Source: an uncultured Methanoregulaceae archaeon
GTDB taxonomy: Archaea; Halobacteriota; Methanomicrobia; Methanomicrobiales; Methanospirillaceae
DNA: 64,000 nucleotides
Reading direction: 5' to 3'
Assembly: GCA_963737635.1 (NCBI GenBank)
Contig: CAVTTL010000001.1
Coordinates: 128,001-192,000 of the forward strand
Shown here: positions 7,516 to 43,263 of the stretch, in pieces
Numbering within the stretch: position 1 is the first letter of the stretch
Layout: every line of letters begins with the position of its first letter
Position numbers and translations under genes: made by a program
Notes under the pieces: model-generated
The model's database searches: none
Told to the model about the DNA's origin: nothing
The model's input: the letters and a program-made list of their open reading frames with translations, nothing else

Positions 7516-7750
7516 TTTTTTACCATCGCTATTGTTAGAAATTCGACGTTTGAGAAGAAGGTGTTTCTGAATAATCTAGTGCGTTCACTATCATTATTTT
7601 AATGAATGTTTTTATGCTTACCTGTATCCCTGAAAAATATATCTTTTTCTTTGTGATTTGATCATACCGCGCCGTCGACCCCGGGTATCACAACAAAGAA
7701 ACAACGTAACCAGCTATTACAGATAGGGCACTGTTTTTTGATACGAGTCC

Positions 7751-8671
7751 TTAGGTATTTCTCGTTCTCTTTATCAGATATTTTAGAATTTTAGGGAGGG
7801 CAACAGGGAATAAATAGAAGTAGCGTAAGACGACACGGAGATAATCCATTCGTGTGCAGGACGATGATTCGTAAGCCATGCGATTGAGGATTATATCACA
7901 TTTCGTCGTTTGAATCCGATAGAACAGCAATAATTTTACTGCAAACGACAGCCGCTGTCTTTTCTGCAGGAAGTCTTCGAGCCGGTATAACACTTTCAGC
8001 ACGCACCGGTAGTACCTCACGTACGACCCGGATTGCCTGCACTGGACACTTTCGGGATTTATAGAATACTGGAACAATGGCTCGGGATCAAAGTAAATCC
8101 CGGAAACTGCCGCAAATCTTGCCGACAGGTCATAATCTTCACACAGCGGAAGATCTGCCCCCACGTGATACATTCCTGTTTTTTCAAGCAGTGCGGCACG
8201 GATTATACACGAGGAGGTCACCACAAAATCCCCCATGATCTCCTGGTTGAGCATATCCTGTTTGTTTTTGATCTTCCGGGGGACATACATGGTTTTTTTG
8301 CTATCTTCCAGTTCCACGTACCCGTTACTGCACCCGAGACCGATCTCCGGATTTTTTTCCAGAACTTCAACCTGTCGGTATAGTTTCTCAGGAAACCATA
8401 TATCGTCATCATCGAGAAATGCAATGTATTTTCCTCGGGCGTTTTTCATACCTGCATTCCGTGATTCGGCCGGATAAGGTGTCTGCGGGATCCTGATATA
8501 GTGAACCGTGTCTCCAAAATCCTTTACTACCCATTCAGCGGCCCCACAATCATCAACGATAATAATTTCATACGGGGAATATGTCTGGGCCAGGATGCTT
8601 TTTACTGCATGTACCAGCAAACGGTTCCGATTATGGGTAGGAACGATAACGCTGACAAGGGGGGACGACAT
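7751..8671 (-). CDS. glycosyltransferase family 2
   Basis: VSVIVPTHN, IIVDD, FLDDDD, CEDYDL. Confidence 0.92.
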   Translation of the reverse strand: MSSPLVSVIVPTHNRNRLLVHAVKSILAQTYSPYEIIIVDDCGAAEWVVKDFGDTVHYIRIPQTPYPAESRNAGMKNARGKYIAFLDDDDIWFPEKLYRQVEVLEKNPEIGLGCSNGYVELEDSKKTMYVPRKIKNKQDMLNQEIMGDFVVTSSCIIRAALLEKTGMYHVGADLPLCEDYDLSARFAAVSGIYFDPEPLFQYSINPESVQCRQSGSYVRYYRCVLKVLYRLEDFLQKRQRLSFAVKLLLFYRIQTTKCDIILNRMAYESSSCTRMDYLRVVLRYFYLFPVALPKILKYLIKRTRNT

Positions 8672-8798
8672 AAAATACGATCCTCTTAAAAAATGGGAAC
8701 TGCCTCTTTTTATGATCTAGGATTCTCCCTTACAAAAATCTATTCGAACGATACACATTTGAAGGTACGAAAAAAACAGTAAAGGAGTGATACTAATA

Positions 8799-9674
8799 AT
8801 GCTCACATTTTTTTCTATTCCCAAGCCATTCGCTGGAAAAATTGCGGTTCTCCAGAAAAATGCCATCCGGAGCTGGAAACAGGTCTGCCCGGAATGTGAG
8901 ATCCTGTTGTTTGGCGATGAGCCCGGGATCAAAGAAGCCGCAGAGGAATATGGTGTGCGCCACATTCCGGAAGTAAAAAAGAATGCTTATGGGACGCCTA
9001 TTCTCGAGGATATTTTTGACCAAGCCAGAAAATTATCCAAAAATGATCTCCTGTGTTACATCAACTGTGACATTATCCTGACAAGCGACATCATTGCAGC
9101 GCCAAAAAAAATTCCTTTCGAAGACTATCTTCTCGTTGGCCAGAGGACAAACGTCGATATTGATACTGAACTGGTCTTTAATGAAACGTGGGAGCACGAT
9201 TTACGGGAGCGGGCCCAGAACTACGGAGTATATGAAGGCACAATGGGCATTGATTATTTCCTCTATCCCAAAAAATCCATTACCCATATGCTGCCATTCG
9301 CCGTGGGGAGGCGCGGTTGGGACAACTGGTTTATTTACAACGCACGAAAGGAGGGAATCGCAGTCGTCGATTGTACTCCGGCGGTACTTGTTGTACACCA
9401 GAACCATGGATACGATCATGTCAAGCAAAAGACAGGCACCCGGTGGGAGGGGCCTGAATCTGACGTCAATATGAACTTGATTGGAAACCCGGCTTATCTC
9501 TGGGATCTTGGTGACGCAGACTGGATATTATCAGAACACGGTGTTACGAAAAAACCGTTCAGTCTACTGGGGGTTTACCGGTATTTCATACTTCATTCCC
9601 CGGGAATTCTTTTACCCATTATCAGTGGAATCGCTTCGGGGATTGTGAAAGTGAAAAAAATGAGTGGTATTTGA
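8799..9674 (+). CDS. putative GT-A fold glycosyltransferase
   Basis: QKNAIRSW, INCDII (DxD-like), WDNW and VHQNH; located in a glycan locus. Confidence 0.65.
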   Translation: MLTFFSIPKPFAGKIAVLQKNAIRSWKQVCPECEILLFGDEPGIKEAAEEYGVRHIPEVKKNAYGTPILEDIFDQARKLSKNDLLCYINCDIILTSDIIAAPKKIPFEDYLLVGQRTNVDIDTELVFNETWEHDLRERAQNYGVYEGTMGIDYFLYPKKSITHMLPFAVGRRGWDNWFIYNARKEGIAVVDCTPAVLVVHQNHGYDHVKQKTGTRWEGPESDVNMNLIGNPAYLWDLGDADWILSEHGVTKKPFSLLGVYRYFILHSPGILLPIISGIASGIVKVKKMSGI

Positions 9675-9866
9675 AAGAGCGATGAGGTGATTTTGGTATG
9701 GCATCCCGCGGGTGAAATCTGGTTGCCTAATCTCCATTTCAATCTTTACATCACCTTATGAACTAACAAACGGAGATCAGATCAAGATCAATTTTACCGC
9801 TGGTCGATTACACTCCTGAAAATACTACGATAAAGTCTTATTAATTAAAAATTCAATTAGTGATGA

Positions 9867-10853
9867 ATGTCCAGTAAAAACCCGCCAATAGTGACTACCC
9901 GGACTATTACCGCATCGGACCCGGTTGAACCTGAAAAAAAACTCCGGACCCCGATATTACTTCTCACCTTCAACCGTCAGGAAACGATGCAAAAAGTTTT
10001 CAACGAAATCCGGAAAGCGCGGCCGGAACAACTTTTTGTGGCTACTGATGCTCCCCGTAAGGATCATCCAACAGATATCGAGAAATGCAAAAAGGTTCTG
10101 GACATAGTTCATTCAGTTGATTGGGATTGTACTCTTTCAATATTTACTCACGAGGAAAATGTTGGCGGCAAAATCGGTATAACATCCGCGATGGACTGGT
10201 TCTTTTCTCAGGTTGAGATGGGTATTATTTTTGAAGATGACTGCCTGCCCGACCAGAGCTTCTTCCCATTCTGTCAGGAATTGTTAGAGCGATACCGGTA
10301 TGATGAAAGGATCATGATGATCTCCGGTGACAACTTCCAGGGTGGGAGGATAAGAACGGAGTACAGTTATTATTTCTCGCGGTATCCTCACACATGGGGA
10401 TATGCGACATGGCGGCGGGTCTGGAAAGACTACGATATCGCTATCAAAAAATGGCCGATGATCCGGGATGGCGGGTGGCTGGAAGATATCCTTCAGGATA
10501 AAAAAGCAGTCCGGTATTGGACCGGAATCTTCGAAGGCGTATATAATAGGACTATCTATTCCCATGATTACCAGATAGGATTTCTCTGTTGGATTACCGG
10601 GCGATTGTGCATCCTGCCGAACACCAATCTGATATCTAATATCGGTTTTGGGCAGGATGCCGCTCATACCAGCGATGTGAATAGTCCTTTCGCCAACATG
10701 CCGACAGTTCCTGTGCAATTCCCGCTGAACCATCCTCCATTTATCATCAGGGATAATAGGGCAGATCAATTCTCCCAAAGAACACATTTTGATACCGCAA
10801 CATGGATCAGCAGAACGCGATACTTTTTGGGACATATGTTGGGGCGAATATGA
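9867..10853 (+). CDS. nucleotide-diphospho-sugar transferase (GT-A)
   Basis: PILLLTFNR, IIFEDDCLP, WGYATWRR, NLISNIGFG. Confidence 0.8.
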   Translation: MSSKNPPIVTTRTITASDPVEPEKKLRTPILLLTFNRQETMQKVFNEIRKARPEQLFVATDAPRKDHPTDIEKCKKVLDIVHSVDWDCTLSIFTHEENVGGKIGITSAMDWFFSQVEMGIIFEDDCLPDQSFFPFCQELLERYRYDERIMMISGDNFQGGRIRTEYSYYFSRYPHTWGYATWRRVWKDYDIAIKKWPMIRDGGWLEDILQDKKAVRYWTGIFEGVYNRTIYSHDYQIGFLCWITGRLCILPNTNLISNIGFGQDAAHTSDVNSPFANMPTVPVQFPLNHPPFIIRDNRADQFSQRTHFDTATWISRTRYFLGHMLGRI

Positions 10854-11647
10854 ACGTTCGGTATGACAATATCGGATTATCTGATACTGATGAAAAAGAA
10901 ATTGAGAGATTGCTTGCTGTAAAAACCCCTTATTCTGATGATTTACACCGGATGGGTTTTCTCATAGATATGGTATGGGACGAACTCGGTTGTGATAATA
11001 AACATCTTGATGATAACAAATTAGCGCAGTTTTATTCTCATCCGGTCTGGATTCTCAATGGATTGTTCATCGAACAACATGCATTATCCATGCAGCATCG
11101 TAATGGAATCAGCCAATGGATTGCAGACAATAAAATGCGATCAGTAATTGATTATGGCGGGGGATTTGGAACACTCGCCCGGCTTATTCACCGGAAATCA
11201 CCGGAAACAGATATTGTCATATTCGATCCGTACTCGAATAATTCTTCATGTAAACAATTTCCGGAAATAACAAGCATACGATTCCTATCGGCAATTGATA
11301 AAGAGTATGATTGCCTCATCGCCGAGGATGTACTTGAACATGTACCGAAACCCATTCAACTCCTTTCCTTAATGACCTCATATGTGAAACCAGATGGCTA
11401 TCTGCTCATTGCCAACAATTTCAACCCGGTAATAAAATGTCATCTGCCTGCAACATTCCATCTGAGATATACTTTTGATCATATCGCAAAAGCACTTGGA
11501 TTGCAGAAGTGTGGCACGGTAGCAGGGGCACCACATACAACCATTTACCGGAAACACCATTGCAACTCTTCTGTCAGTAGCAAAGTGATTCTGATGGAAT
11601 GTGGATCGAAATTACTGTTTCCGATATTCAAAAGGGTGTTGGGATGA
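10850..11647 (+). CDS. class I SAM-dependent methyltransferase
   Basis: VIDYGGGFG motif I, DVLEHV; ATG overlaps upstream stop. Confidence 0.85.
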   Translation: MNVRYDNIGLSDTDEKEIERLLAVKTPYSDDLHRMGFLIDMVWDELGCDNKHLDDNKLAQFYSHPVWILNGLFIEQHALSMQHRNGISQWIADNKMRSVIDYGGGFGTLARLIHRKSPETDIVIFDPYSNNSSCKQFPEITSIRFLSAIDKEYDCLIAEDVLEHVPKPIQLLSLMTSYVKPDGYLLIANNFNPVIKCHLPATFHLRYTFDHIAKALGLQKCGTVAGAPHTTIYRKHHCNSSVSSKVILMECGSKLLFPIFKRVLG

Positions 11648-12888
11648 AAATTCTTTTTATAAACACCTTTGATTCTGTCGGGGCTGCAGCAAATAATGTG
11701 CATCTTTTATGTAAAAGTTTGCAGTCAGTTGGCGTTCAATGCGAGATGATGGTGCAATTCAAAGGTAGTGACGACCCCTCCGTTATCGGACCACAGGGAA
11801 AATTAAAAGAAAAAATGAGTTGGCTACACTACCATATGGACCGACTTCCTCTAAAATTTTACCCCGGTAAAAACAAAACAATGTTCTCACCGGCATGGGT
11901 GCCAAACAGGAATCTTGTCCATGCCATCAATAAAAGCGACGCGGATATCGTTCACCTTCATTGGATCACCGCAGGAATGATACGGGTAGAGGATCTCGCG
12001 CATATCAGAAAACCAATCATCTGGTCCCAGCACGATATGTGGCCGTTCACCGGGGGGTGCCATTATGATGGAGGATGTGGCAAGTACGCGACTCATTGTG
12101 GTGCCTGTCCGGTACTTGGTTCCTGTCATACAACCGATTTGAGTTACAGGGTTCATGCACGAAAAATAAAAGCATATGCAAAAATTCCCTCCCTTACCGT
12201 CAATGGTATAAGCCGGTGGATTACAGAGTGCGCAAAGAGGAGCACCGTATTCTCCGGCAGGGAGATAACAAACGTCTCAAGCCCTATAGATACAAAAGCA
12301 TTCCAGCCCTTGGACAAAGCCATTGCCCGGGATCTTCTCCATCTCCCGCAGGACAAGAAATTTATCTTGTTTGGCGGGGACGGCATGGTACAGGACCCGC
12401 GCAAAGGACACCGGTATCTCAAATCCGCATTAGACTTGATCAGTACCCCTGATGTCGAATTGCTCATTTTTGGCTCTGGTAATTTCGCGCCCTCACTCCA
12501 GTATAAATTTCCGGCTCACTATCTCGGGCATCTTCCTAACGATCTTACCATGAGGATCACTTACAGCGCGGCAGATGTCTATGTCATGCCAAGCGTTCAG
12601 GAGGTGTTGGGATGGGTGTCTACCGAATCGATGGCCTGCGGGACTCCTGCAATAACATTTGATTTAGGTGGGCCAAAGGAGATAGTCGACCATATGATAA
12701 ACGGGTATTGTGCCATCCCGGAAGATCCCGTTAGTCTGGCAAAAGGAATTGATTGGGTTCTCACCCATCCCGAGCCAAAGGATCTATCCACGAATGCCCG
12801 GCAGGCTATACTCAGCAAATTTGATTCCATACTCATAGCGAAGCAATACCGGGAACTCTATAAACGGCATATTGAATGTGACAACTGA
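11644..12888 (+). CDS. glycosyltransferase family 4 (WcaC-like)
   Basis: HLHW, HDMWPFTGGCHY, DPRKG, ESMACGTP. Confidence 0.9.
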   Translation: MKILFINTFDSVGAAANNVHLLCKSLQSVGVQCEMMVQFKGSDDPSVIGPQGKLKEKMSWLHYHMDRLPLKFYPGKNKTMFSPAWVPNRNLVHAINKSDADIVHLHWITAGMIRVEDLAHIRKPIIWSQHDMWPFTGGCHYDGGCGKYATHCGACPVLGSCHTTDLSYRVHARKIKAYAKIPSLTVNGISRWITECAKRSTVFSGREITNVSSPIDTKAFQPLDKAIARDLLHLPQDKKFILFGGDGMVQDPRKGHRYLKSALDLISTPDVELLIFGSGNFAPSLQYKFPAHYLGHLPNDLTMRITYSAADVYVMPSVQEVLGWVSTESMACGTPAITFDLGGPKEIVDHMINGYCAIPEDPVSLAKGIDWVLTHPEPKDLSTNARQAILSKFDSILIAKQYRELYKRHIECDN

Positions 12889-13198: not shown

Positions 13199-14155
13199 AT
13201 GAAAGCATTTGTTACTGGCGGCACCGGCTTTATCGGCAGTAATCTTGTAGACACGATACTTTCCCTTGGAAAAGAAGTTACCGTTTACGATAATTTTTCC
13301 ACAGGGATTCAGGAATACCTGGAGACTGCAGAAAAACGACCCGGGTTCCATTTGATCACCGGGGATCTCTTGGACCAGGAAAAATTGTGCACTGCAATGG
13401 CTGGCTGTGATTTTGTCTTTCATCTGGCTGCAAATGCCGATGTTCGCTATGGCACGGAACATCCGGAAAAAGATCTTTACCAGAATACTATCGCAACGTT
13501 TAACGTGCTTGAAGCGATGCGGAAAAACGCCATCAATAAGATTGCGTTCTCTTCCACCGGTTCCATTTATGGGGAAGCAACGGTAATTCCCACACCCGAA
13601 GATGCGCCGTTCCCGGTACAGACTTCGCTGTACGGTGCATCCAAGCTCGCGGGAGAAGGGCTGATTGAGGCATATTGTGAGGGGTTTGGCTTCCAGGCAT
13701 GGATCTTCCGGTTCGTGTCCATCCTCGGGGAACGCTACCCGCACGGGCATGTTTTTGATTTCTATAAACAGCTCCGTGCCCATCCCGATCACCTGAATGT
13801 TCTCGGAAACGGACATCAGAAAAAATCGTATCTCTATGTGCAGGACTGCATTAATGCCATTTTTACCGCAATCGAAAAATCCCGAGACCCGGTGAACATA
13901 TTCAATCTCGGTACTGATGACTATTGTGAAGTGAACGATTCCATCAACTGGATATGCAGTCACCTGGATCTCAAACCAGAGATCCGCTATACCGGCGGGG
14001 ACCGGGGCTGGATTGGGGATAACCCGTTCATATTCCTCGATTGTAAAAAGATCCGTTCCCTCGGCTGGAAACCAGAATATACGATTCATGAGGGTGTTAT
14101 CAAGTCGCTTGAATTCCTCGAATGCAATCCGTGGGTACTGGAGAGATTTCCATGA
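13199..14155 (+). CDS. NAD-dependent nucleotide-sugar epimerase/dehydratase (LmbM-type family)
   Basis: GGTGFIG, SSTGSIYG, YGASK extended-SDR motifs. Confidence 0.9.
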   Translation: MKAFVTGGTGFIGSNLVDTILSLGKEVTVYDNFSTGIQEYLETAEKRPGFHLITGDLLDQEKLCTAMAGCDFVFHLAANADVRYGTEHPEKDLYQNTIATFNVLEAMRKNAINKIAFSSTGSIYGEATVIPTPEDAPFPVQTSLYGASKLAGEGLIEAYCEGFGFQAWIFRFVSILGERYPHGHVFDFYKQLRAHPDHLNVLGNGHQKKSYLYVQDCINAIFTAIEKSRDPVNIFNLGTDDYCEVNDSINWICSHLDLKPEIRYTGGDRGWIGDNPFIFLDCKKIRSLGWKPEYTIHEGVIKSLEFLECNPWVLERFP

Positions 14156-15444
14156 AAATATGTGTGTTTGGGTTATGGCACCTGGGATCGGTCATTTGTG
14201 CGAGTCTTGCGAAATCCGGACATACCGTTGTCGGCCTTGATTTCAATCGGGAGAACATTGAAAACTTCCGGAACGCCAAAGCCCCCGTTTCAGAACCCGG
14301 ATTAAACGAACTAATTCTTGAAAATCTCCAGAAAAAATCGTTGCGTTTCACGTGCGATCCTGCACCTGCCCTGACAGATGCAGAGGTAGTGTGGATCGCA
14401 TTTGATACACCGGTGGATGAACAGGATAATGCAGATCCCAGTTATATAGAGAAGAATTTTGAGATAATTTCCGGATTTATACGGAACCAGGCGAAAATTA
14501 TCATATCCTCACAGGTTCCCGTTGGATTCACCCGGCATCTTTCTCAGAAATTCCATGAGAAATATCCTGGTAAAAACGTTTTCTTTTCGTACTCACCGGA
14601 AAACTTACGCTTGGGGAAAGCACTGAAAACATTTTTGGAACCGGACCGGATTGTCATTGGAACTCTGCCTGAAGATAAAGCCCTATTTCTCCCCATTTTC
14701 TCATCCATCAGTAATAGACAGGAATGGATGAGTATTGAATCAGCTGAAATGACAAAACATGCAATCAACTCTTTTCTTGCCACCTCAATCTGTTTTGCAA
14801 ATGAAATTGCAACACTCTGCGAATACGTGGGAGCAAATGCAAAAGAGGTCGAACGGGGATTAAAAACCGAAGAACGGATCGGTCCGAAAGCATACCTCAC
14901 ACCGGGCAATGCATTTTCAGGAGGTACCCTGGCAAGGGATATACGATTTTTACAAAAATTAGGAGACCATAACCATCTGCCGGTCCCCCTCATCAACGCT
15001 GTCTTAACAAGCAATGACTTCCACAAGACATGGATTAAAAGAAAATGTAACGAAACACTTGGTGAACTTAAGGGAAAAAATATCTCTGTCTTTGGACTTA
15101 CCTACAAACCAGGGACTGACACATTACGGAGATCCTTTTCCGTGGAACTCTGTACATGGCTCCATGGCGAAGGCGCCACAATCACCGCATTCGATCCCGC
15201 AATTCATGAGCTCCCCTCAGAATTACAGGGAACCCTTTCGTTATCTTCCGGCATTCTTCCCGCGGTAAAAGATGCAGACTGCCTTATCATTGCCACGGAA
15301 TGGCCGGATTTCCAAAAAATCCCGGTGGATATCCTTATTCATATGAGGACGAAGATCCTCATCGATCCCAATGGATTTGTGGAACACAATCTGGGAGAGG
15401 CCCATAATATTCGTTATCTGACCGTAGGAAGAGATCTTTCATGA
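14152..15444 (+). CDS. UDP-glucose/GDP-mannose dehydrogenase family protein lacking the catalytic Cys (LmbL-type)
   Basis: GLWHLG, FDTP, SPENLRLG, AEMTKHAIN, GLTYKPGTDTLR; FSGGTLARD where the family usually has GGxCxxKD. Confidence 0.85.
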   Translation: MKICVFGLWHLGSVICASLAKSGHTVVGLDFNRENIENFRNAKAPVSEPGLNELILENLQKKSLRFTCDPAPALTDAEVVWIAFDTPVDEQDNADPSYIEKNFEIISGFIRNQAKIIISSQVPVGFTRHLSQKFHEKYPGKNVFFSYSPENLRLGKALKTFLEPDRIVIGTLPEDKALFLPIFSSISNRQEWMSIESAEMTKHAINSFLATSICFANEIATLCEYVGANAKEVERGLKTEERIGPKAYLTPGNAFSGGTLARDIRFLQKLGDHNHLPVPLINAVLTSNDFHKTWIKRKCNETLGELKGKNISVFGLTYKPGTDTLRRSFSVELCTWLHGEGATITAFDPAIHELPSELQGTLSLSSGILPAVKDADCLIIATEWPDFQKIPVDILIHMRTKILIDPNGFVEHNLGEAHNIRYLTVGRDLS

Positions 15445-16307
15445 AACTCGCTGGACGAAATGCGATAATAACCGGGGCAAACCGGGGTTTTGGCCTTGAA
15501 ATTGCCAAAAAGTTTGTTGAAGAAGGAGCGTCTGTTCTCATCTGCGGGAGAGACGAAGATCAGGTTGCGCTTGCCGTTGATTCCCTGCGGAAACTCACTT
15601 CGTCGGAACAAACCGTTGTTGGTGTACCCCTAGACGTGTCAAAGGAAGAAAATGTCAAACAGATGATTAACGTCGCAATCGATACGTTGAAACGGATTGA
15701 CATCGTGGTCAACAATGCCGGGATATACGGGCCAAAAGGACTCATAGAAGATGTCGATTCAGGGGAATGGGTATCTGCGATCCATATCAACCTTTTAAGC
15801 GTTTTTTTCATGTGTAAAGGGATACTTCCGCATATGAAAAAGAACAATGCCGGGAAAATAATCAACCTTTCCGGAGGAGGAGCAACGGCACCATTACCAA
15901 GAATAAGTGCCTATGCCGCATCCAAAGCAGCAGTCGTAAGATTGACAGAAACACTCGCTGAGGAATGCAGGGAATATGCAATTGATATTAACGCTGTTGC
16001 ACCGGGTGCACTCAACACCCGGCTTCTCGACGAAATCCTGGAGTCCGGGCCTGATGTTGTAGGTAAGGCGTTTTACGAGAAAGCCCTCAAACAAAAAGCC
16101 GATGGCGGAACACCCCTCCAGTTAGGTGCTGAACTCTGTGTTTACCTGGCATCTTCTGCCAGTGACGGGATAACCGGGAAACTAATCAGCGCCCCTTGGG
16201 ACCCCTGGCAAAACCTTGCGCAGTACCGCGATGAACTAAGAAATTCGGATATTTACACATTAAGAAGGATCGTTGAGAAAGATCGCGGTAAAAACTGGGG
16301 GACCTGA
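15441..16307 (+). CDS. short-chain dehydrogenase/reductase
   Basis: TGANRGFG, NNAG, YAASK. Confidence 0.92.
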   Translation: MKLAGRNAIITGANRGFGLEIAKKFVEEGASVLICGRDEDQVALAVDSLRKLTSSEQTVVGVPLDVSKEENVKQMINVAIDTLKRIDIVVNNAGIYGPKGLIEDVDSGEWVSAIHINLLSVFFMCKGILPHMKKNNAGKIINLSGGGATAPLPRISAYAASKAAVVRLTETLAEECREYAIDINAVAPGALNTRLLDEILESGPDVVGKAFYEKALKQKADGGTPLQLGAELCVYLASSASDGITGKLISAPWDPWQNLAQYRDELRNSDIYTLRRIVEKDRGKNWGT

Positions 16308-16308
16308 C

Positions 16309-17299
16309 GTGAAAGTCGGTATAATCGGGTGCGGTGCCGTCGGGAAGAAACGTGCTCTTGCCTTGGGGGATAACGAACTTGTGATGGCTGTCGATACGTC
16401 ACTCGAACGGGCGCGGGACGTAGCGCAGCTCAAAAACTGTACTTCAGTAAGCACTGATTACCATGATGCGCTGAATAACGACCAGATTGAGCTTTTGTTT
16501 ATCTCAACCACCAATGAATTTCTCGCAAAAATTACCTTAGATGCAGTCTCTGCCAAAAAGCATGTACTGGTAGAGAAACCCGCAGGCAGGACCCCTAAAG
16601 AACTCATTCCCATTATCGAAACGGCACAACGAAATAATGTTTTTGTCAAAGTGGGATTCAATCACCGGTTTCATCCGGCATTGCACAAGGCAAAACAACT
16701 GGTGGATTCAGGAGAGATTGGACCGTTAATGTTTATCCGCGGCCGGTATGGTCACGGGGGGCGGCGCGGATATGAAAAAGAGTGGCGTTCAATTCCTGAA
16801 AAATCGGGGGGTGGGGAGCTCATCGACCAAGGAGTTCACCTGATCGATTTGTCACGATGGTTCCTTGGCGACCTTGATGTCGCTGAAGGTTTTGCCCATA
16901 CGGTACTTCTGGGATATGCCGGTCGATGATAATGCATTCCTGATGCTGAAAAGTCCACGCGATCAGATCGCATGGCTCCATGTCAGCTGCACTGAGTGGA
17001 AGAATATGTTTTCTTTTGAAATTTATGGAAAAACGGGAAAACTCCAGATAGAGGGTCTTGGCGGAAGTTATGGCACGGAACGGCTATGCCTTTATAAAAT
17101 GCTTCCTCTGATGGGCCCACCGGAAACGACGATATGGGAATATCCGTTCCCGGACGATTCCTGGAATCTCGAAGTGAATGAATTCATCCGGTCGATCGAA
17201 ATGCACAAAGAACCAGAGGGAAATATACGCGATGCCAAAAAAGCACTGGATATCGTCGAGAAAGTGTATGACAAATCCCATTTTAAGGTGAATATATGA
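16309..17299 (+). CDS. Gfo/Idh/MocA family oxidoreductase (LmbZ-type family); frameshift near 16900
   Basis: GIIGCGAVG, VLVEKP, GFNHRF, GGGELIDQGVH; C-terminus continues in ORF 16865..17299. Confidence 0.85.
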
Positions 17300-18279
17300 T
17301 TATCACTCGTAGTCCTTTGAGAATCTCCCTTGGCGGCGGAGGAACAGATCTGCCTTCGTATTACCAGAAACATGAAGGTTTTTTGATTGCCGCGGCGATC
17401 GACAAATACGTCTATATCAACCTGCACGATACGTTCGTTGATTATCTCATTGTAAAATACTCAAAAATGGAAGAGGTCAGGAGCATCGAAGAGATCAAGC
17501 ATCCCATTATTCGCGAATCCCTGAAACTGCTGGGATTTGACGCCCGGTACCTTGAAATTGCGAGCCTTGCAGACATCCCGGCAGGTACTGGCCTCGGCTC
17601 GTCCAGCAGCTTTACCTGTTCGCTCCTTAAAGCACTTCATACCCATAAGAAAAACCTGATTTCACCGGCGGATCTTGCTGAACAAGCTTGTCACATTGAG
17701 ATGGATCTTCTTCACGAACCCATTGGCAAACAGGATCAATATATCTCCGCACATGGTGGCATTAACTGTTTCACGTTCTGTAAAGACAACCGGGTAAAAA
17801 CGGAAAAACTCAATATATCCCCGGAAACACTCTACAATCTCGAGGACCACCTCTTGCTCTTTTTCACCGGGTACTCACGTTCTGCATCAAACGTTCTCAG
17901 AGAGCAGGACGACAAAAGCAAGAAAAACGATACCACCATGATCGATAACCTGCACTTTGTCAAGGAACTGGGGTATAAGAGTAAAACAGCTTTTGAACGT
18001 GGGGATCTTGAAGAGTTTGCCAACATCATGAACGTTCATTGGGAGCATAAGAAGCAGCGCTCGAACGCGATGAGCAACGACCGGATCAACACGTGGTACG
18101 ATATCGCTATGAAAAACGGTGCGCTGGGGGGGAAACTCATCGGTGCCGGGGGCGGGGGATTTTTGATGTTCTATGCTGAAGACACCAAGAAACTCCGCAA
18201 GGCCATGGCATGCGAAGGGCTCCAAGAAGTCCGGTTCCGGTTTGACTTCGACGGCAGCAAAGTGGTGACTACATCGTAA
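17296..18279 (+). CDS. GHMP sugar-phosphate kinase (HddA/LmbP family)
   Basis: SPLRISLGGGGTD, PAGTGLGSS, GKQDQY, GAGGGGF. Confidence 0.92.
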   Translation: MIITRSPLRISLGGGGTDLPSYYQKHEGFLIAAAIDKYVYINLHDTFVDYLIVKYSKMEEVRSIEEIKHPIIRESLKLLGFDARYLEIASLADIPAGTGLGSSSSFTCSLLKALHTHKKNLISPADLAEQACHIEMDLLHEPIGKQDQYISAHGGINCFTFCKDNRVKTEKLNISPETLYNLEDHLLLFFTGYSRSASNVLREQDDKSKKNDTTMIDNLHFVKELGYKSKTAFERGDLEEFANIMNVHWEHKKQRSNAMSNDRINTWYDIAMKNGALGGKLIGAGGGGFLMFYAEDTKKLRKAMACEGLQEVRFRFDFDGSKVVTTS

Positions 18280-18996
18280 TGCTGCCAGTGGTTATTCTTG
18301 CGGGAGGACTTGCCACCCGCCTGTACCCGGTAACCCAAAAAATCCCCAAATCTCTGATTTTGATCGCCGGCCGGCCCTTTATCGATCACCAGCTGGAGCT
18401 CCTGAAAGAAAAAGGCGTGGCCCGGGTCGTCCTGTGTGTGGGAAACTTTGGCGCTATGATCGAATCATATGTTGGCGACGGCTCCCGGCTCGGGCTGGAA
18501 GTGACAGTACTCCTATGATGGGGACGCTCTCCTTGGGACAGGTGGCGCAATTAAAAAGGCAGCCGGGATGCTTCCGGAGGCGTTCATGATCCTGTACGGT
18601 GACTCCTATCTCGATATCGATTTTGAACCGATCGCGCAAACGTTTAGCGCGGGGACACTTCCGGCCCTGATGACGGTGTACCGGAACCGGAACACATTCG
18701 ATACGAGCAACGTCATTATGAAGGATGGGAAAATTGTAAGGTATGACAAGAAATCCCGCGATCCGTCCATGGAATACATTGATTATGGGCTCATTGCGAT
18801 CCGGAAAAACGTTTTCGATGAGTATCCGGTAAATGAACCCTTCGATCTCTCTCTAGTTCTTTCCCGGCTGGTTGACACCGGGCAGGTCTTAGGATATGAG
18901 GTCACGAAACGCTTTTACGAGATCGGGTCGACATCAGGGATCAAGGAAACTGAAGACTATATCAGGACAAGAAAACCAGTTTCATACAAGGTCTGA
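18279..18996 (+). CDS. sugar-1-phosphate nucleotidyltransferase (HddC/LmbO family); frameshift near 18510
   Basis: ILAGGLATRL...PKSL, then LGTGGA, LYGDSY and FYEIGS in the next frame. Confidence 0.85.
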
Positions 18997-18998
18997 AA

Positions 18999-19607
18999 AT
19001 GACGAGTGAAAACGATTATATTTCTGCATTCCTCAACGACGCTGTAACGATAATCCGGAAAATCGATCAGGTCCAGATCAAAAAAATGTCTGAAATTCTC
19101 CAGGACATCCGAAAAAACGGCGGGCGTCTGTTCATTCTCGGCGTCGGCGGTGGAGCCGGACACGCATCCCATGCAGTGAACGATTTCCGGAAGATCGCCG
19201 GGATTGAATCCTATGCGCCGACGGATAACGTTTCGGAGCTCACCGCCCGTGTCAATGATGACGGCTGGGAGACCGTTTTTGAGAGCTGGCTCAAAGGAAG
19301 CAGGCTCACCGCGAAGGACTGCATCTTTGTCTTTTCTGTCGGCGGCGGGAATGCAGAAAAGAATGTCAGCGTGAACCTAGTGAATGCCCTGCGATATGCA
19401 AAGGATACCGGTACAAAAATCATCGGTGTTGTGGGACGTGATGGTGGCTACACGGCAAAAGTTGCGGATGCCTGCGTGATTATCCCGACCGTAAACGAGA
19501 AGACCGTAACCCCCCAGACGGAAGCTTTCCAGGCCGTTGTCTGGCATCTCATCGTTTCAAGCCCGGCGATGCAGAAGTTCGAGATGAAGTGGGAAAGCAC
19601 AAAATAA
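18999..19607 (+). CDS. SIS-domain phosphosugar isomerase (GmhA/LmbN-related)
   Basis: GVGGGAGHASHAVND, SVGGG; GmhA-like length but divergent motif. Confidence 0.85.
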   Translation: MTSENDYISAFLNDAVTIIRKIDQVQIKKMSEILQDIRKNGGRLFILGVGGGAGHASHAVNDFRKIAGIESYAPTDNVSELTARVNDDGWETVFESWLKGSRLTAKDCIFVFSVGGGNAEKNVSVNLVNALRYAKDTGTKIIGVVGRDGGYTAKVADACVIIPTVNEKTVTPQTEAFQAVVWHLIVSSPAMQKFEMKWESTK

Positions 19608-19616
19608 TTTTTTTCG

Positions 19617-20204
19617 ATGAAACCGGCAGTTTTTTTCGATCGCGATGGTGTCATCAACGAGCTCATGCTGAACTCGGACACCGGGGAGTACGAACCGCCC
19701 CATTCACCGGGAGATCTTACTCTTTTTCCTGATGTGATTGCATCTTTACGAATCCTTCAGAATGCCGGTTTTGATCTCTTCCTCGTGTCCAACCAACCAG
19801 ATTACGCAAAAGGGAAAACGACGCTGGAGCAGATCCAAGCGGTGCACGAGAGACTCAATCAGATCCTGAAATCCGAAGGGATTCTGTTCCGTGACTACTA
19901 TTACTGCTACCACCACCCGCAGGGAACTGTCCCTGAATATTCTTTCTCGTGTGAGTGCCGGAAACCAAAACCCTATTTCATCCTGAAAGCAGCCCGGGAT
20001 TATGGGATCGATCTCGCGCATTCGTGGATGGTCGGCGATCGGGATACCGATATTGCATGCGGAAAAGCGGCAGGGACCCGGACTATTCTGATTCTTTATC
20101 CACACTCAGCTGGAAACCGTGGCTCCGGCGACCCGGATTACAAAGTTGAAAATATCCGGGATGCGGTACACACGATAATACGTCCCTCTGACAAAAAAAT
20201 ATGA
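19617..20204 (+). CDS. HAD-IIIA sugar-bisphosphate phosphatase (GmhB/LmbK family)
   Basis: FFDRDGVIN, VSNQ, CxH...CECRKP, MVGDRDTD. Confidence 0.92.
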   Translation: MKPAVFFDRDGVINELMLNSDTGEYEPPHSPGDLTLFPDVIASLRILQNAGFDLFLVSNQPDYAKGKTTLEQIQAVHERLNQILKSEGILFRDYYYCYHHPQGTVPEYSFSCECRKPKPYFILKAARDYGIDLAHSWMVGDRDTDIACGKAAGTRTILILYPHSAGNRGSGDPDYKVENIRDAVHTIIRPSDKKI

Positions 20205-20305
20205 CTGTAGCGTAAATCGCCGAATATAAAACAACGAATCTTAAAGATGCAGAACAGATAATACTTCATAATCAGGACTAAAAAAAGTGAACTGGAAGTA
20301 ATATT

Positions 20306-21022
20306 ATGAGCGGATTACCACAGTTTAAGATCAAGCTCTATGCGGATGGTGCCGATCTCGACGGCATGATCGAGGAGTACAAAAAAGGGATTGCAAGCGG
20401 TTTTACGACCAACCCGACCCTTATGAAAAAAGCCGAGGTCAAAAGTTACGAGGATTTTGCAAAAGCTGCCCTCAAGGCGATTCCGGACCTTCCCATCTCA
20501 TTCGAAGTTTTTTCTGATGACCTGCCCGGGATGGAACGCGAAGCCCGGAAGATCGCTGGCTGGGGAAAGAACGTCTATATCAAGATCCCGGTGACCAACA
20601 CCAAAGGCGAAAGCACAGCACCGCTCGTGAAAAAACTCTCCCACGACGGTCTGAAGCTGAATGTTACCGCTATCCTGACCCTCGACCAGGTAAAGACAGT
20701 GGCAAAGGCCCTTTCCCCGGATACGCCGAGCATCGTTTCGGTGTTTGCCGGTCGTATCGCGGATACCGGAAGAGACCCGATGCCGATTATGAAAGATGCC
20801 GTGAAGATCCTCAAGCCCTTGCCGAAAGCCGAACTGCTCTGGGCAAGCACCCGAGAGCTGTTGAACCTTGTTCAGGCCGAGTCCTGCGGCTGTCACATCA
20901 TCACGATCACGAATGATATCTTAAAGAAGGTCCCGCAGGTCGGTAAAGATCTGAACCAGTTGTCGCTTGAGACCGTGCAGATGTTTTACTCCGATGCGCA
21001 AAGTGCGGGATATAAGATTTAA
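20306..21022 (+). CDS. tal: transaldolase
   Basis: GFTTNPT, ISFEV (Glu), YIKIP Schiff-base Lys, SVFAGR (Phe): transaldolase rather than FSA residues. Confidence 0.9.
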   Translation: MSGLPQFKIKLYADGADLDGMIEEYKKGIASGFTTNPTLMKKAEVKSYEDFAKAALKAIPDLPISFEVFSDDLPGMEREARKIAGWGKNVYIKIPVTNTKGESTAPLVKKLSHDGLKLNVTAILTLDQVKTVAKALSPDTPSIVSVFAGRIADTGRDPMPIMKDAVKILKPLPKAELLWASTRELLNLVQAESCGCHIITITNDILKKVPQVGKDLNQLSLETVQMFYSDAQSAGYKI

Positions 21023-21096: not shown

Positions 21097-22563
21097 TTAT
21101 TTTATCTTCGCATTTTTTGGAACGTCCCGTGACCCCCCAAAAGAACTCCCGAATCGTCCTTTAATGCGAGGCCACCAGAACATTCTCCACTTAAACGCAT
21201 AAATGGTCGGGATAAGCTGCCACTGGTGCTTGAATCCGCGCCATGTGAAAAGAGTGTCGCAGGAGAGATAGGATCGTAATTCTTCCCATAACTCATGTAA
21301 TTCTTCTTCGGTGTGTTCTGCGGTATATACTGGTACGGGGTTTTCAGTAAGCCAATAATCATCGGTAATTTGCCCACATGCTTTCATATCCTCGAAGAGT
21401 TCGGTACCGGGATAAACTCGGGCAATCCGTTTCTTCTCTTCCTCTGCTGCATAATAATGATACTTTTCCTTCTGGATGCGGTTCATCAGCCGGCCCGTAT
21501 TTCTGATAGATTCCATAGTTTCTCCCTTCAGGCCGACAATAAAGAAGACGTCTAGATCTATACTGGTATTCTTAAACAGGTCTATGGCGCGAATCACATC
21601 CTCAGGGGTGGTGTGTTTATGACAGTTTTTTAAAACGGTGGGATCCCCACTTTCCAATCCGAACGATGCTCTTTCAAATCCGGTTTGTGCCAAAGCGTCG
21701 ATGACCTCTTTGGAGAGGGGGCGAAATCGTGCCTGACACCGGTAAGTAAAAGGAAGTTTGTTTTCCCGGATTAATTCACACAACCGGATGATCCTTTTAT
21801 TATCGGTTAAAAACGCATCATCATGGAAAAAAATTCTTTCTATGAACGGATAATCCCTGACGATGTCTTTGAGTTCGGCAACAATGTTCTCCGGGGATCG
21901 GTATCGCGTCATCCTTTTTGCCGTGGGATTCAAAGAGCAAAATGAACAGGCGTTTGGGCACCCTCGTGCTGTCAGAACGCACGCACTTTTCCGGCCAGTA
22001 CCTTTTAGGAATGGAGATTGATCCGGGAATGGCAGTGTATCAAGATCGGTAAGGGGTCTTACCTCTGTCGTAACAATCTCTCCATCACGCATAAATGCGA
22101 TTCCTTTAACTGCATCAATAGGTATGCCTTTCTCTAGTTTATCCGCGAGTTCCGCAAAGGTCAAATCACCCTCGCCGACAACTACGATGATATGAGGGTA
22201 TTTATTAAGCATCTGCTTGTAGAGGATTGTTGCATGGATTCCTCCGATAACAACTTTTATTCCGGGATGATTATCATGGAGATATTCAATAAGACGGTAT
22301 GATGAGATTCGTTTTTCAGTAAGGATCTGGATACCGATTACGTCAGGCTGCTTGTCTCGGGTGAACACCTTGATTTTTTGTTCGGCCTCTGTCTCGCTGT
22401 AATCGTCGAGATAAAGTAAATCCACATCGTGGTTATCTTTTAGCGAAGCCGCAACGTATGCCAATCCTAAGGAGTATTGGCTTTGAGATGGGTCTACCAT
22501 GGGGAGGCGGGGGCCATCAAATGTCGATTGATCCCAAGGCATTGTAACTAGAACTATTTTCAT
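21097..22563 (-). CDS. B12-binding radical SAM protein (class B methyltransferase-like)
   Basis: SLGLAYVAA, IGGIHAT, GEGD, ARGCPNACSFC (CX3CX2C), GLESG. Confidence 0.9.
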   Translation of the reverse strand: MKIVLVTMPWDQSTFDGPRLPMVDPSQSQYSLGLAYVAASLKDNHDVDLLYLDDYSETEAEQKIKVFTRDKQPDVIGIQILTEKRISSYRLIEYLHDNHPGIKVVIGGIHATILYKQMLNKYPHIIVVVGEGDLTFAELADKLEKGIPIDAVKGIAFMRDGEIVTTEVRPLTDLDTLPFPDQSPFLKGTGRKSACVLTARGCPNACSFCSLNPTAKRMTRYRSPENIVAELKDIVRDYPFIERIFFHDDAFLTDNKRIIRLCELIRENKLPFTYRCQARFRPLSKEVIDALAQTGFERASFGLESGDPTVLKNCHKHTTPEDVIRAIDLFKNTSIDLDVFFIVGLKGETMESIRNTGRLMNRIQKEKYHYYAAEEEKKRIARVYPGTELFEDMKACGQITDDYWLTENPVPVYTAEHTEEELHELWEELRSYLSCDTLFTWRGFKHQWQLIPTIYAFKWRMFWWPRIKGRFGSSFGGSRDVPKNAKIK

Positions 22564-22853
22564 TCAATTACTCCAACAAAGATACATTTGCGTTGCTCCT
22601 TTAACAAAGTCAATTATTGTCTCTGTCTCCTCATGGAGTAATATTTTTCGTAGTCAAGTCACCGTTTACCATCAAATAGGGATCCGAACGAGGCGTTCGT
22701 TACCCTCTCGATGTTGTAGTCTTCTCCGCGCTCGTTAAAATCCTCAAGCGGCTGTAATAACACCCGATAATAGTTAACATTGGGTATCCAGCCAAATTAA
22801 CACACAGATGATCTATGAAATCAGAATGTTTACAAGTGTCGTTATGTAGATCC

Positions 22854-23657
22854 CTATTTATTACTAACAAAATCCATGATGGTCTTCCCGCCTAACATCT
22901 TTTCTTTCAACCTAGTTAACTTCTGGATATGATAATTCTGAGCGGTCGGGCATTTATGGCAGATGGATTTCGGCTGGGTCTGCAGTTCCAATGAAATACC
23001 GCGATGTTTTTCCACGAGTTCCCGGTACGTGTTTTTATAAAGCGAGCCAATTGGTTCTGTTAATCCTCGCATAGAGCAACAGAAAATAACATCACCATTT
23101 GGCATCATCTGGTAACCCGGCACTTCGAGATGGGAACAAATCACGCGGCCTCGTTTGAACGTTTTAATTTTGCCTCGCGCCAAGTCCTCAACATGGCAGG
23201 TCTGAAATAACCCCCCCATATTCATAATCTCCATATTATGTACATGGGTAAGGACGTAGGTTAGAACGTCCTGATAATTCTGGGTAATAGGAATGTGAGC
23301 GTTACCTTCAGCATCGGGAAGATGTAGTATAAACTGCACAAACGGGATCTCGCATAATGTTACCGCATCGGAAATCTGCAATCCGACAAGAGTGGTGGAA
23401 ACCCGGATCTTATGCCCTTTCTCGTACGCATACAGGATCATCGCTGGACACTCCGGGTTCTGGAAGACTTCCGACAACCCGGCAAAATCAACGATTACCT
23501 CTGGCGGAACGGTTTCAATCAGTTCTTTAAATGCAGCAAGAGTTAGTGGTTTCATCCCCCCAAGTTTCTTCACAATTAGTTCCTGCGGACAATACTTTAT
23601 GCAATTAATGGCACACCCAATTTGCGTTGTTATTTCAAGATAGGGTTGATCAGTCAT
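22854..23657 (-). CDS. radical SAM/SPASM-like protein with CX3CX3C motif
   Basis: GCAINCIKYCPQ, FAGLSE, C-terminal Cys cluster (CSHL, FCCS, CHKC). Confidence 0.7.
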   Translation of the reverse strand: MTDQPYLEITTQIGCAINCIKYCPQELIVKKLGGMKPLTLAAFKELIETVPPEVIVDFAGLSEVFQNPECPAMILYAYEKGHKIRVSTTLVGLQISDAVTLCEIPFVQFILHLPDAEGNAHIPITQNYQDVLTYVLTHVHNMEIMNMGGLFQTCHVEDLARGKIKTFKRGRVICSHLEVPGYQMMPNGDVIFCCSMRGLTEPIGSLYKNTYRELVEKHRGISLELQTQPKSICHKCPTAQNYHIQKLTRLKEKMLGGKTIMDFVSNK

Positions 23658-24119
23658 TTAATCACTCCGAATAATACGGACATCTCCGGGTGTTGATGGT
23701 GAGGAGCAAAATTGCCTCCTCAATGAGGTAACAGTCTTATAAATAATGTACTTTCTCTTATGGATTAAGTTCACTCTTCCATTCCATGAGCAGAGTGTTT
23801 ACCTCTTTTTTCAGTCTAGGATGAGCCATTGCTTAAACCCACCTTGAATGAGAAAATTCCAAGGTTTTTTTCCCGGGAAATCAACATTCGATTATGAAAA
23901 GATATTTGCAATTCAATAGTGCAAACGCTGATTTAAGAATCGTTTGGGAATTTTGAGTTTTAGAATAATTTCGCCGGGCGAAAAACAGGCCATCTTGATA
24001 TTTCGTAATCCTTAAAAAATAAGTTGTAAAGAAATATGCCCCCTTCATTGTAATAGAATTGCCATGTCCATTGTGTTGTTACCATTCCGACATTTCAAAC
24101 AACAAAAAGATCGAGAGTT

Positions 24120-24830
24120 CTATTTAAGTTTGTAGAGTTTATCAGAGTACTCATTATTCGAATTCAGAGTCCCTACAAGATTGTACTTAGTTCCAATGAT
24201 TTTCTCAACCATTTCTTGCAATTTTGGATGAACTTCAATAAGAAGATAATCGGGAGCATGTCGATCGAAGTCTATACCCCGAAGAACTTCAACTTCATAA
24301 CCCTCAACATCAAGAGATAAAAAATCGATGTGTTTAATACCATAATAATCCAAAACGGCAGAAAGCGGTTTTGCTGGAACGCGAACAATATATGAAGACT
24401 CATCTTTTTTAAGGCATTTTTTACCATTTGCAATATGATTTGAAGCAACGATCTCATCTTCAAAAGCACCGTGAACACAAGTCGCCAAATTACAATAATT
24501 CACTTCTATCGATTTGTCTGGATAATCAAATGCAACAAGCGCACAGTTCTCAATTATGCATTTTGGGCGATTTTCGCGGCATTTTTTCGCAAGATCCGGA
24601 ACTGCTTCTATCAACAATCCTTTCCATCGTTTATACTTCTCAAAATATAGTGTATTGCTTTGATTGATGCCGTCATTTGCACCTACCTCTATAAAAAACC
24701 CGGAATTGAAATTAAGATAGGGTTTCAACTTTAAATCAAGTTGGTTTAACGAAAACGATTTTTCCCATCTTAAATTTCGCAAATCACGGTTTTTGAAGAT
24801 GTGGTTATTAAAGAAATCCCAAATTGTCAT
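24120..24830 (-). CDS. FkbM family methyltransferase
   Basis: [21 protein letters not shown]. Confidence 0.9.
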
Positions 24831-26104
24831 TTGAGTTCACCATTCCATTCCATGAGAGGAGCGATAACGCCGGGTCTTCTTTCCGTCCAATAGGGGCTGT
24901 CGCTTAGACCGCCAACAATATTTATATTTACAAAGGGTGCTTTTTTCCTAGAATCTATAATTAAATGTCTGCACCGGAGAGAGGCAGTTAATTCGATGGT
25001 GTAAATCCCCTCGTTTAAAAATCGTTTGGGAATTTTTGTCTTTAACAGAAAATTCCCCAATGAAAATTTCGGCCAGTCCGTCTCTTTTTGATCGGTACAA
25101 AGAGATGTATATATTACAATTCCATTTTCATTCGAAATGAAATAACCAAGTGCTAATCCAGGATCTAATTGTTTAATTTCACCTTCGATTTCAATCCAGA
25201 TATCCTTGTTATTACTTGTTGGATTATTTATAAAATTTCCCAAAGAATCACAAATGATCATTTTTAGAGGTTTAAACCATGGATTCTCAAATTCTTTACC
25301 AGAATTATTCCACTGAGATGAAAATGTCCCACTAGTTTCCACTGATATGTAGGAGTCTATAATTTGCCTTACATGTGGCCCTTTTTGTTTAATGTGGCCA
25401 TTTTCTATGAGAATGCCATACGAGCACAACTGTTCAATCGCATTCATATTATGGCTCACAAAAATGACCGTTCGCCCCTCTTTAGCCACCTCGCCCATTT
25501 TTCCCAGGCATTTTTTCTGGAATGCTGCATCACCGACAGCAAGCACCTCGTCCACCAGTAGAATCTCCGGTTCAAGGTGAGCTGCCACTGCAAACGCGAG
25601 CCGGATATACATCCCGCTTGAATATCGTTTCACCGGTGTATCAAGAAATTTTTCAATCTCAGAAAATTTTACAATATCATCCAGTTTGGCATCGATCTCT
25701 TTCCGTTTCATTCCGAGGATCGAACCAGATAAATAGATATTCTCCCGACCAGTTAATTCCTGATGAAACCCGGTCCCGACTTCCAGCAGTGAACCGACCC
25801 GGCCATGCAACTCCACGGTTCCTTCCGTAGGAGAAGTAATCCGGGAAAGGATCTTTAAGAGCGTACTCTTCCCGGCTCCGTTTCTCCCGATAATCCCGAC
25901 AATCTCACCCTGCTCAACGTCAAACGATACATCCTTTAAAGCCCAGAACCCTTCCACCGGTGGGGCCTTGTGGAACACTTTCAATGGCGCCTTAAGAGAA
26001 TTGACAATTGCATCCCGAAAGGTATGATACGGTTCCTGCGGTCCACCGATACGGTATTGTTTGCTCAGGTGATTTACACGGATGGCGATTTTGTCAGACG
26101 TCAT
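24827..26104 (-). CDS. wzt: polysaccharide ABC exporter ATPase with C-terminal carbohydrate-binding domain
   Basis: [30 protein letters not shown] plus a C-terminal extension. Confidence 0.92.
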
Positions 26105-26259
26105 AATTGATGAACATTCCCGTAAGAATGAGGTATCTTTAGAATGTTTGTATCCGGAATAATTGAATCAAACGGTAGTGAATAGACTACCAGAAAACTC
26201 TTTGTGATATCGTTTCGGTCTCATTTCCATTGACAGAATTAAGTCAAATCTATTCTGCA

Positions 26260-27111: not shown

Positions 27112-27176
27112 GGATGTGATCAGGAATTTTGTTGTCACATTACTTATAGTCTGGTGACTGGGACTGCAGAATCCTT

Positions 27177-28170
<994 letters not shown>

Positions 28171-43262: not shown

Positions 43263-43263
43263 A

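Follow-up and report, generated by a model that had tools for sequence, protein, structure and literature searches.

A putative octose cassette with its own transaldolase in a surface-glycan locus of a methanogen

Introduction

To our knowledge, the lincosamide antibiotics are the sole known source of aldo-octoses built from ribose 5-phosphate. In their assembly a 6,8-dehydration carried out by LmbM, LmbL and CcbZ yields a keto-deoxy sugar. Table 2 of PMC4351081 lists the genes of this branch as lmbR (transaldolase), lmbN (C8 isomerase), lmbP (C8 kinase), lmbK (C8 phosphatase), lmbO (C8 guanylyltransferase), lmbM (C8 epimerase), lmbL (C8 dehydrogenase), lmbZ (C8 oxidoreductase) and lmbS (aminotransferase), and PMC12945683 describes the conversion of GDP-octose to GDP-lincosamide by LmbM, LmbL, CcbZ and CcbS. 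Here we analyze a nine-gene operon of largely the same enzyme families in a stretch of 64,000 nucleotides from an uncultured Methanoregulaceae archaeon (hereafter the window; positions 128001-192000 of the first contig, G000:C1). By analogy with the lincosamide route we consider it probable that the operon is a cassette for a nucleoside diphosphate-activated (NDP-) octose or deoxyoctose of a surface glycan, acquired from bacteria.

With the lincomycin/celesticetin amino-octose branch the window operon has eight enzyme families in common, all in one operon, and the genes for the Gfo/Idh/MocA oxidoreductase (Gfo), the kinase and the nucleotidyltransferase run collinear in both. That branch, however, uses a pyridoxal phosphate-dependent aminotransferase (LmbS) where the window operon has a classical short-chain dehydrogenase/reductase (SDR) in its tailoring part, and it belongs to an antibiotic cluster, whereas the window operon lies in an archaeal surface-glycan locus with glycosyltransferases and Wzm/Wzt. 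The pathway to GDP-D-glycero-alpha-D-manno-heptose shares with the window operon the four-step logic of isomerase, anomeric GHMP kinase, HAD-IIIA phosphatase and nucleotidyltransferase, and the window kinase has its nearest solved relatives among heptose kinases; the window operon differs from this pathway in its remote isomerase, the transaldolase within the operon, the lack of a transketolase match in the host and the tailoring genes. No description of an octose cassette or a transaldolase-linked cassette in a glycan locus was found in the literature searched, subscription journals lying outside its coverage.

Results and discussion

Nine enzyme families in one operon

The host genome (2.46 Mb in four contigs) encodes McrA and, within the window, topoisomerase VI, as expected of a methanogen, and its closest named relatives belong to Methanoregula. 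Nine plus-strand genes run head to tail from 13199 to 21022, mostly with overlaps of 1-4 nt or gaps of 1-10 nt, a 102-nt gap 5' of the transaldolase gene being the exception. Families were assigned by Pfam and NCBIfam profile searches, and bit scores were weighed against NCBIfam equivalog cut-offs. In order, the genes encode an extended-SDR NDP-sugar epimerase with an LmbM-like role (13199..14155), a UGD-family dehydrogenase of LmbL type that lacks the catalytic Cys (14122..15444), a classical, FabG-like SDR (15441..16307), a Gfo/Idh/MocA oxidoreductase with an LmbZ-like role (16273..17299), a GHMP sugar-phosphate kinase (HddA/LmbP role; 17296..18279), a sugar-1-phosphate nucleotidyltransferase (HddC/LmbO role; 18279..18996), a SIS-domain ketose-phosphate isomerase with an LmbN-like role (18999..19607), a HAD-IIIA sugar-bisphosphate phosphatase (GmhB/LmbK role; 19617..20204) and a transaldolase, the proposed octulose 8-phosphate synthase (20306..21022). 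Coordinates and both profile collections thus bear out the sequence-only reading of this stretch, which had named these nine families in one co-oriented, tightly spaced set. Its statement that lincomycin sugar biosynthesis uses the same families also holds as far as Table 2 of PMC4351081 goes, eight of the nine corresponding there to LmbK, L, M, N, Z, P, O and R. No aminotransferase of the DegT family was found in the operon.

As a lincosamide comparator we used proxy blocks from a chaplin-rich, presumed Streptomyces-like genus, the characterized Lmb/Ccb proteins lying outside the comparison. A sample of 401 genomes of this genus gave 14 kinase matches, 12 of them with loci. Ten of the 12 loci were other clusters carrying neither a UGD-like nor a Gfo gene, and four of these ten had no transaldolase in the 20-40 kb read. 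A nine-family block in K-L-M-N-Z-P-O-S-R order, i.e. phosphatase, UGD-like protein, epimerase, isomerase, Gfo, kinase, transferase, aminotransferase and transaldolase, was present in four of the 401 genomes (L150/L151 in G940, L152/L153 in G1009, L154 in G1038 and L155 in G1205), which account for the remaining two loci and the two kinase matches without a locus. In G940 and G1009 the block is bordered by genes for a glycosyltransferase of 436 aa, an ABC-2 exporter and a protein resembling alpha-1,3-glucanases, and by an ANT(2'')-like gene; lincosamide synthetase and propylproline genes are missing from these flanks. The blocks may represent an amino-octose glycan or glycoside locus outside antibiotic clusters. 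Identity between window and block proteins was highest for the epimerase (38% over 309 aa, top of the nine), followed by Gfo (34-37%), isomerase (30-32%), phosphatase (29-32%), UGD-like protein (29-30%), kinase (25-29%) and transaldolase (25-28%).

The activation enzymes fall outside the heptose equivalogs

The SIS isomerase scored 52.9 bits on the gmhA model TIGR00441, against a cut-off of 209.45. On the same model the block isomerase scored 50.4 bits and a true archaeal GmhA, from the Methanomicrobiales genome G073, 196.6 bits, and the best solved GmhA matched the window protein with 46 bits. In the isomerase tree E. coli GmhA joined the G073 protein with support of 100/98. Judged by its sequence, the window isomerase is not a GmhA. 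The GHMP kinase (PF00288 and PF08544) reached 176.8 bits on the HddA model NF049969, whose cut-off is 600. The HAD-IIIA phosphatase was above the cut-off of TIGR01662 (91.8 bits) and under both GmhB cut-offs (117.5 vs 178 on NF006506; 106.3 vs 149.6 on a second model). The nucleotidyltransferase, whose gene is split in the window and matches PF00483 on its first piece, was scored through the unbroken orthologue of locus L014, which reached 97.4 bits on the HddC model with its cut-off of 300. None of the four genes thus reaches the NCBIfam cut-off of the GmhA, HddA, GmhB or HddC equivalog.

The cassette isomerase occurs without transketolase in sampled Methanomicrobiales

To form sedoheptulose 7-phosphate, a transaldolase needs erythrose 4-phosphate, for which the known route is transketolase, while ribose 5-phosphate is a universal metabolite. 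Searches of the four host contigs, at 90% marker completeness, with PF00456 and, by tblastn, with a transketolase of the same genus gave no match, a result that falls short of proving absence. The host genome gave no match to 3-deoxy-D-arabino-heptulosonate 7-phosphate (DAHP) synthase and encodes 3-dehydroquinate synthase II of the aromatic route that is independent of erythrose 4-phosphate. Given the lack of transketolase and DAHP synthase matches and the presence of this synthase, erythrose 4-phosphate has neither a known source nor a known use in the host.

The same relation was followed through an order-wide sample of 151 Methanomicrobiales genomes, 16 of which carry a transketolase. A GmhA-type isomerase (156-197 bits) occurs in six of the 151 (G073, G110, G155, G062, G095 and G054), all six with transketolase; it adjoins an FSA-like transaldolase in every one, and a split transketolase lies close by on the same contig in four, wherever the contig allows. 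The window-type isomerase (48-54 bits) stands beside a transaldolase in eight genomes of five genera, the host and seven others, none of which has a transketolase match, and two genomes with an intermediate-scoring isomerase both have transketolase. In G073 the cluster runs as two transketolase pairs, transaldolase, epimerase, radical SAM gene, kinase, transferase, aminotransferase, GmhA and GmhB. Groups of this type (also L162 in G110) look like a self-contained supply of sedoheptulose 7-phosphate. They resemble the window in that a transaldolase stands beside a SIS isomerase, to which G073 adds kinase, transferase and phosphatase, and differ from it in their true GmhA, their FSA/TalC-like transaldolase (29-36% identical) and their transketolase. 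Within Methanomicrobiales, then, the true heptose isomerase travels with transketolase and transaldolase, and the window type travels with transaldolase alone. Since the transaldolase of the window type comes without transketolase and every cell holds ribose 5-phosphate, the transfer from fructose 6-phosphate to ribose 5-phosphate, giving octulose 8-phosphate, is the one productive reaction that can be named.

Distribution and transfer of the cassette

The cassette kinase is present in seven of the 151 Methanomicrobiales genomes. Five of the six kinase loci other than that of the window combine the epimerase with the core (kinase, transferase, isomerase, phosphatase and transaldolase); one of these five also has a UGD-like gene, three have Gfo and a different SDR and lack the UGD-like gene, and L018 lacks all three. 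The sixth, L019 in G073, is a cluster of a different kind. An alignment of kinase representatives was also searched against reference genomes, and the best 80 related loci, at 46-81% identity, were analyzed. They derive from Verrucomicrobiota, Acidobacteriota, Planctomycetota, Chloroflexota, Legionella-like bacteria, Coxiellaceae, Clostridia and others. At least 6 kb is available on both sides in 47 of the 80, and 36 of these 47 carry a close isomerase, with a close transaldolase within 9 kb in 30 of the 36. All nine families occur together in seven of the 80. The cassette recurs in different bacterial phyla and in most cases brings a transaldolase of its own; a survey of synteny had been among the checks suggested by the earlier reading. 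Bacterial hosts that were tested have transketolase in five of five cases and a separate long transaldolase in three of five, and the cassette keeps its own copy; because these hosts already own transketolase, and often transaldolase, the cassette copy is not needed for sedoheptulose 7-phosphate.

The window transaldolase covers the whole TIGR02134 model with 355.9 bits (cut-off 281.95). In the transaldolase tree all copies from archaea fall into one clade inside the bacterial cassette copies, which argues that archaea received the cassette from bacteria. Sequence comparison indicates that the cassette is widespread and mobile across bacterial phyla and rare in Methanomicrobiales, and that it is no archaeal speciality. 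A housekeeping transaldolase of the order was considered as the identity of the window gene and rejected: copies of at least 79% identity occur in just six of the 151 genomes.

The host has a second transaldolase copy at G000:C1:1384106-1384819, with 97% protein identity and 95% DNA identity over 724 nt, the likeness stopping at the borders of the open reading frame (ORF). This copy lies 3' of an ApgM-like mutase and a small secreted protein, with a family 2 glycosyltransferase (GT2) and a methyltransferase downstream, and an epimerase paralogue 45% identical to that of the cassette is located 2 kb upstream of it.

In L160 (G042) and L161 (G143) a variant is found in which a window-type isomerase (56-61% identical) has a different transaldolase (31-35%) next to it, along with two SDR genes and one of the Gfo/Idh/MocA family. 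Kinase, transferase and phosphatase genes are absent within 20 kb in both, neither genome has a transketolase, and the product of the variant may not be nucleotide-activated. The existence of variants that have no kinase or transferase shows that the module has more than one use.

A UGD-like protein without its catalytic cysteine

The UGD-like gene probably starts at the ATG at 14152. Its product carries the three UGD domains (300.9 bits on TIGR03026) and belongs to the same three-domain fold family as the UDP-glucose and GDP-mannose 6-dehydrogenases, whose active-site Lys, Asn and Asp positions it retains. Alignment to solved UGDs (4a7p, 3gg2), however, places FSGGTLARD opposite GYGGSCFPKD, so that Thr replaces the nucleophilic Cys and the protein fails the GGxCxxKD motif of the enzymes that form uronic acids. 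With Thr in place of this Cys, the protein cannot take the thioester step that a twofold oxidation to a uronic acid requires, and on the basis of the alignment it likely performs a single dehydrogenation. The GGTL motif is present in 19 of 21 cassette-linked UGD homologue matches that cover the motif; one reads GGHL and one GGSC, the latter belonging to a second gene in L091 of true UGD type. All four UGD-like proteins of the Streptomyces-like blocks read AGATLHRD and share the loss of Cys with the window protein (TLxRD). In a tree of 28 rows the window protein, 17 other GGTL cassette proteins, the four block proteins and that of L034 formed a clade with support of 100/99, while E. coli Ugd, three other UGD-family genes of the host and the true UGD of L091, a small outgroup sampling, fell outside it. 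The window protein thus shares both the Cys loss and the clade with the L-type of the proxy blocks.

Among the 80 related loci a UGD-like gene is accompanied by a Gfo gene in 13 of 14 cases, and the classical SDR gene lies between the two in the seven loci with the full set. A DegT-family gene was found within 8 kb in four of the 80 and inside the tailoring block in none. The window SDR (PF00106, 185 bits) is under all NCBIfam equivalog cut-offs, and from its family we propose it as a ketoreductase; the epimerase (PF01370, 166.7 bits) likewise stays under every equivalog cut-off. PF01408 and PF22725 match the first piece of the Gfo gene, which is split in the window.

Proposed pathway

In the pathway that we propose, the transaldolase would transfer the C3 unit of fructose 6-phosphate to ribose 5-phosphate, giving octulose 8-phosphate, which the SIS isomerase would convert to octose 8-phosphate. 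The GHMP kinase would then add a phosphate at C1, the HAD-IIIA phosphatase would take off the 8-phosphate and the nucleotidyltransferase would form an NDP-octose; the nucleotide is GDP in lincomycin and is here left as NDP. Epimerase, Cys-less UGD-like protein and Gfo/Idh/MocA protein may remodel the side chain in the manner of LmbM, LmbL and LmbZ to a keto-deoxy intermediate, whose ketone the classical SDR would reduce where the lincosamide pathway transaminates, so that an NDP-deoxy-octose would result. The neighboring glycosyltransferases of families 4 (GT4) and 2 and the Wzm/Wzt exporter are the predicted users of this product.

Gene integrity and alternative explanations

Two of the nine genes lie in two frames within the window: the Gfo/Idh/MocA gene (16273-16929 and 16865-17299, with a frame change at about 16900) and the nucleotidyltransferase gene (18279-18518 and 18568-18996, with a frame change near 18505). 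These splits, and a kinase that is split in the related locus L017, would fit a cassette that is a decaying, non-functional remnant with two of nine genes frameshifted. To check the splits, contigs of four public short-read runs, one of which (X1) may be the source sample, were compared with positions 16200-19100 of the window (2901 bases). The base at 16902 is missing in all three runs that cover it and the base at 18503 in all four, and the contigs are otherwise identical to the window over this interval. The window thus carries one extra base at each of the two positions, both assembly insertions. Because the short-read contigs lack exactly these two bases, both genes are whole in nature, and pseudogenization was rejected on the same evidence. 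Further genes of the window are broken in the same manner, namely the SDR gene beside gmd (27177-28152, minus strand) and the gene for the pyruvate carboxylase B subunit (37449-39198, minus strand), which fits an indel-prone assembly; single-base insertions may also explain why a nearly closed, four-contig genome shows a marker completeness of 90%. Moreover, the cassette genes are unbroken in four of six other Methanomicrobiales loci (L014, L015, L016 and L020, at 57-93% identity), the remaining two being L017 with its split kinase and L019, which is of a different cluster type, and the Gfo/Idh/MocA gene is unbroken in L014-L017. A decaying remnant is hence barely credible.

The main rival concerns the product. 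The operon could make an NDP-heptose of the D-glycero-D-manno-heptose type that is later modified, the transaldolase supplying sedoheptulose 7-phosphate and the UGD-like, Gfo and SDR proteins oxidizing or reducing the side chain. A number of observations favor it or otherwise weigh against an octose. GmhA, HddA, GmhB and HddC are the best named models for the four activation genes, and the best solved relatives of the kinase are the heptose kinases 3k85 (163 bits) and 4usm (155 bits). In a quick tree the window kinase grouped with HddA-like kinases, including the GmhA-linked kinase of G073, and not with the lincosamide type, the block kinases forming a separate long branch. The block transaldolase scored only 65 bits on TIGR02134 and sits on a branch of its own, as another subfamily. 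TIGR02134 itself is named simply 'transaldolase', and because G004, a genome with no cassette, has a transaldolase 80% identical to that of the window beside a split transketolase, the window type looks generic. The G004 copy, for its part, is nested inside the archaeal cassette copies in the tree, as though a gene of the cassette had been recruited into a pentose-phosphate pair. Furthermore, a Methanospirillum genome outside the sample of 151 (G1224) carries all nine genes and also matches transketolase (133.6 bits, one internal TGA), and the genome counts are not independent, the genomes being related and the cassette horizontally mobile. As to the lincosamide side, overall identity between window and blocks is just 25-38%, the isomerases of window and block type are sisters opposite GmhA with weak support (84/44) and long branches, and no PhzF-type gene occurs near the block in any of the four Streptomyces-like genomes; since the blocks lie outside lincosamide clusters, kinship to LmbL rests on gene order and family. 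The phylogenies that the earlier reading had proposed as a check, here built against the proxy blocks, are divided: the UGD-like clade agrees with it, the kinase and transaldolase stand apart, and the isomerase joins the block type with weak support.

Against the heptose stand the scores of the four activation enzymes, all far under the cut-offs, and the lack of a known source of erythrose 4-phosphate in the host. Transketolase accompanies the true GmhA in every case and the window-type isomerase of the sampled genomes in none, and bacteria that own transketolase and transaldolase still retain the cassette copy. We know of no described heptose pathway with a Cys-less UGD-like enzyme and a Gfo/Idh/MocA partner. 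We regard a modified heptose as unlikely. For the NDP-deoxy-octose that the earlier reading had put forward, the Cys-less L-type clade, the non-GmhA isomerase and the transketolase contrast speak in favor, while the grouping of kinase and transaldolase speaks against it. A further rival keeps the transaldolase as the starting enzyme and changes its acceptor to arabinose 5-phosphate, a hexose 6-phosphate or an unphosphorylated aldose, so that another octose stereoisomer or a nonose would be made. The acceptor is not fixed by sequence, the cassette transaldolase differs in subfamily from that of the blocks, and the G042 and G143 variants combine the same isomerase and a transaldolase with neither kinase nor transferase. 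The operon, however, has no extra enzyme that would serve another acceptor, ribose 5-phosphate is available in any cell, and it is the acceptor of the only characterized pathway with this set of families, as described in PMC4351081. Another acceptor appears improbable, and we retain the NDP-(deoxy)octose from ribose 5-phosphate as the preferred reading.

Wider implications

On a broader proposal we are evenly divided: that NDP-octose synthesis started by a transaldolase is a common, horizontally mobile module for surface glycans in both bacteria and archaea, that the lincosamide sugar branch was borrowed from this pool, and that in transketolase-free methanogens the module is the sole productive use of a transaldolase and equips the cell surface with an octose or deoxyoctose, a sugar class unreported from surface glycans of prokaryotes. 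Compared with lincosamide logic, the new elements suggested by sequence would be the surface-glycan setting, a reductase in place of the aminotransferase, another transaldolase subfamily, and archaeal as well as many bacterial hosts. If the cassette carries out the lincosamide-type chemistry, eight-carbon sugars would be ordinary building blocks of surface glycans in many phyla, with Verrucomicrobiota, Acidobacteriota, Planctomycetota, Legionella-like and Coxiella-like bacteria, Clostridia and Methanomicrobiales among the groups concerned. This would also imply a new class of glycan epitopes, a defined role for the Cys-less UGD-like enzyme family and a candidate evolutionary source of the lincosamide sugar branch. 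The transketolase contrast provides a simple genomic rule by which archaeal heptose clusters can be told apart from putative octose clusters.

Flanking genes and other features of the window

The families of the flanking genes, assigned by Pfam, place the operon in a surface-glycan locus. The left flank (5126..12888) contains three GT4 genes (5126-6370, 6358-7515 and 11599-12888), one GT2 gene (7751-8671), a methyltransferase gene and two ORFs without a family. The right flank (21097..29353, minus strand) encodes a B12-binding radical SAM protein, an FkbM methyltransferase, the Wzt/Wzm exporter (24827-27183), the split SDR and a GDP-mannose 4,6-dehydratase (28250-29353). The B12-binding radical SAM protein (21097-22563, minus strand) and a second protein, whose SPASM match is faint (22854-23657, minus strand), are encoded directly 3' of the cassette, beside the FkbM methyltransferase. 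The two may methylate the cassette sugar. Radical SAM genes are also present in the related clusters L015 and L019.

In G004 the transaldolase and transketolase genes are located at L005 (G004:C8:606001-626000) among defence-like genes (AAA_13, PD-(D/E)XK nucleases). Further along the window, two large ORFs without a Pfam family (41910-44286, minus strand, and 44663-45898, plus strand) lie in a stretch of 36% G+C, probably foreign DNA, and adjoin a DDE transposase with a SWIM finger.

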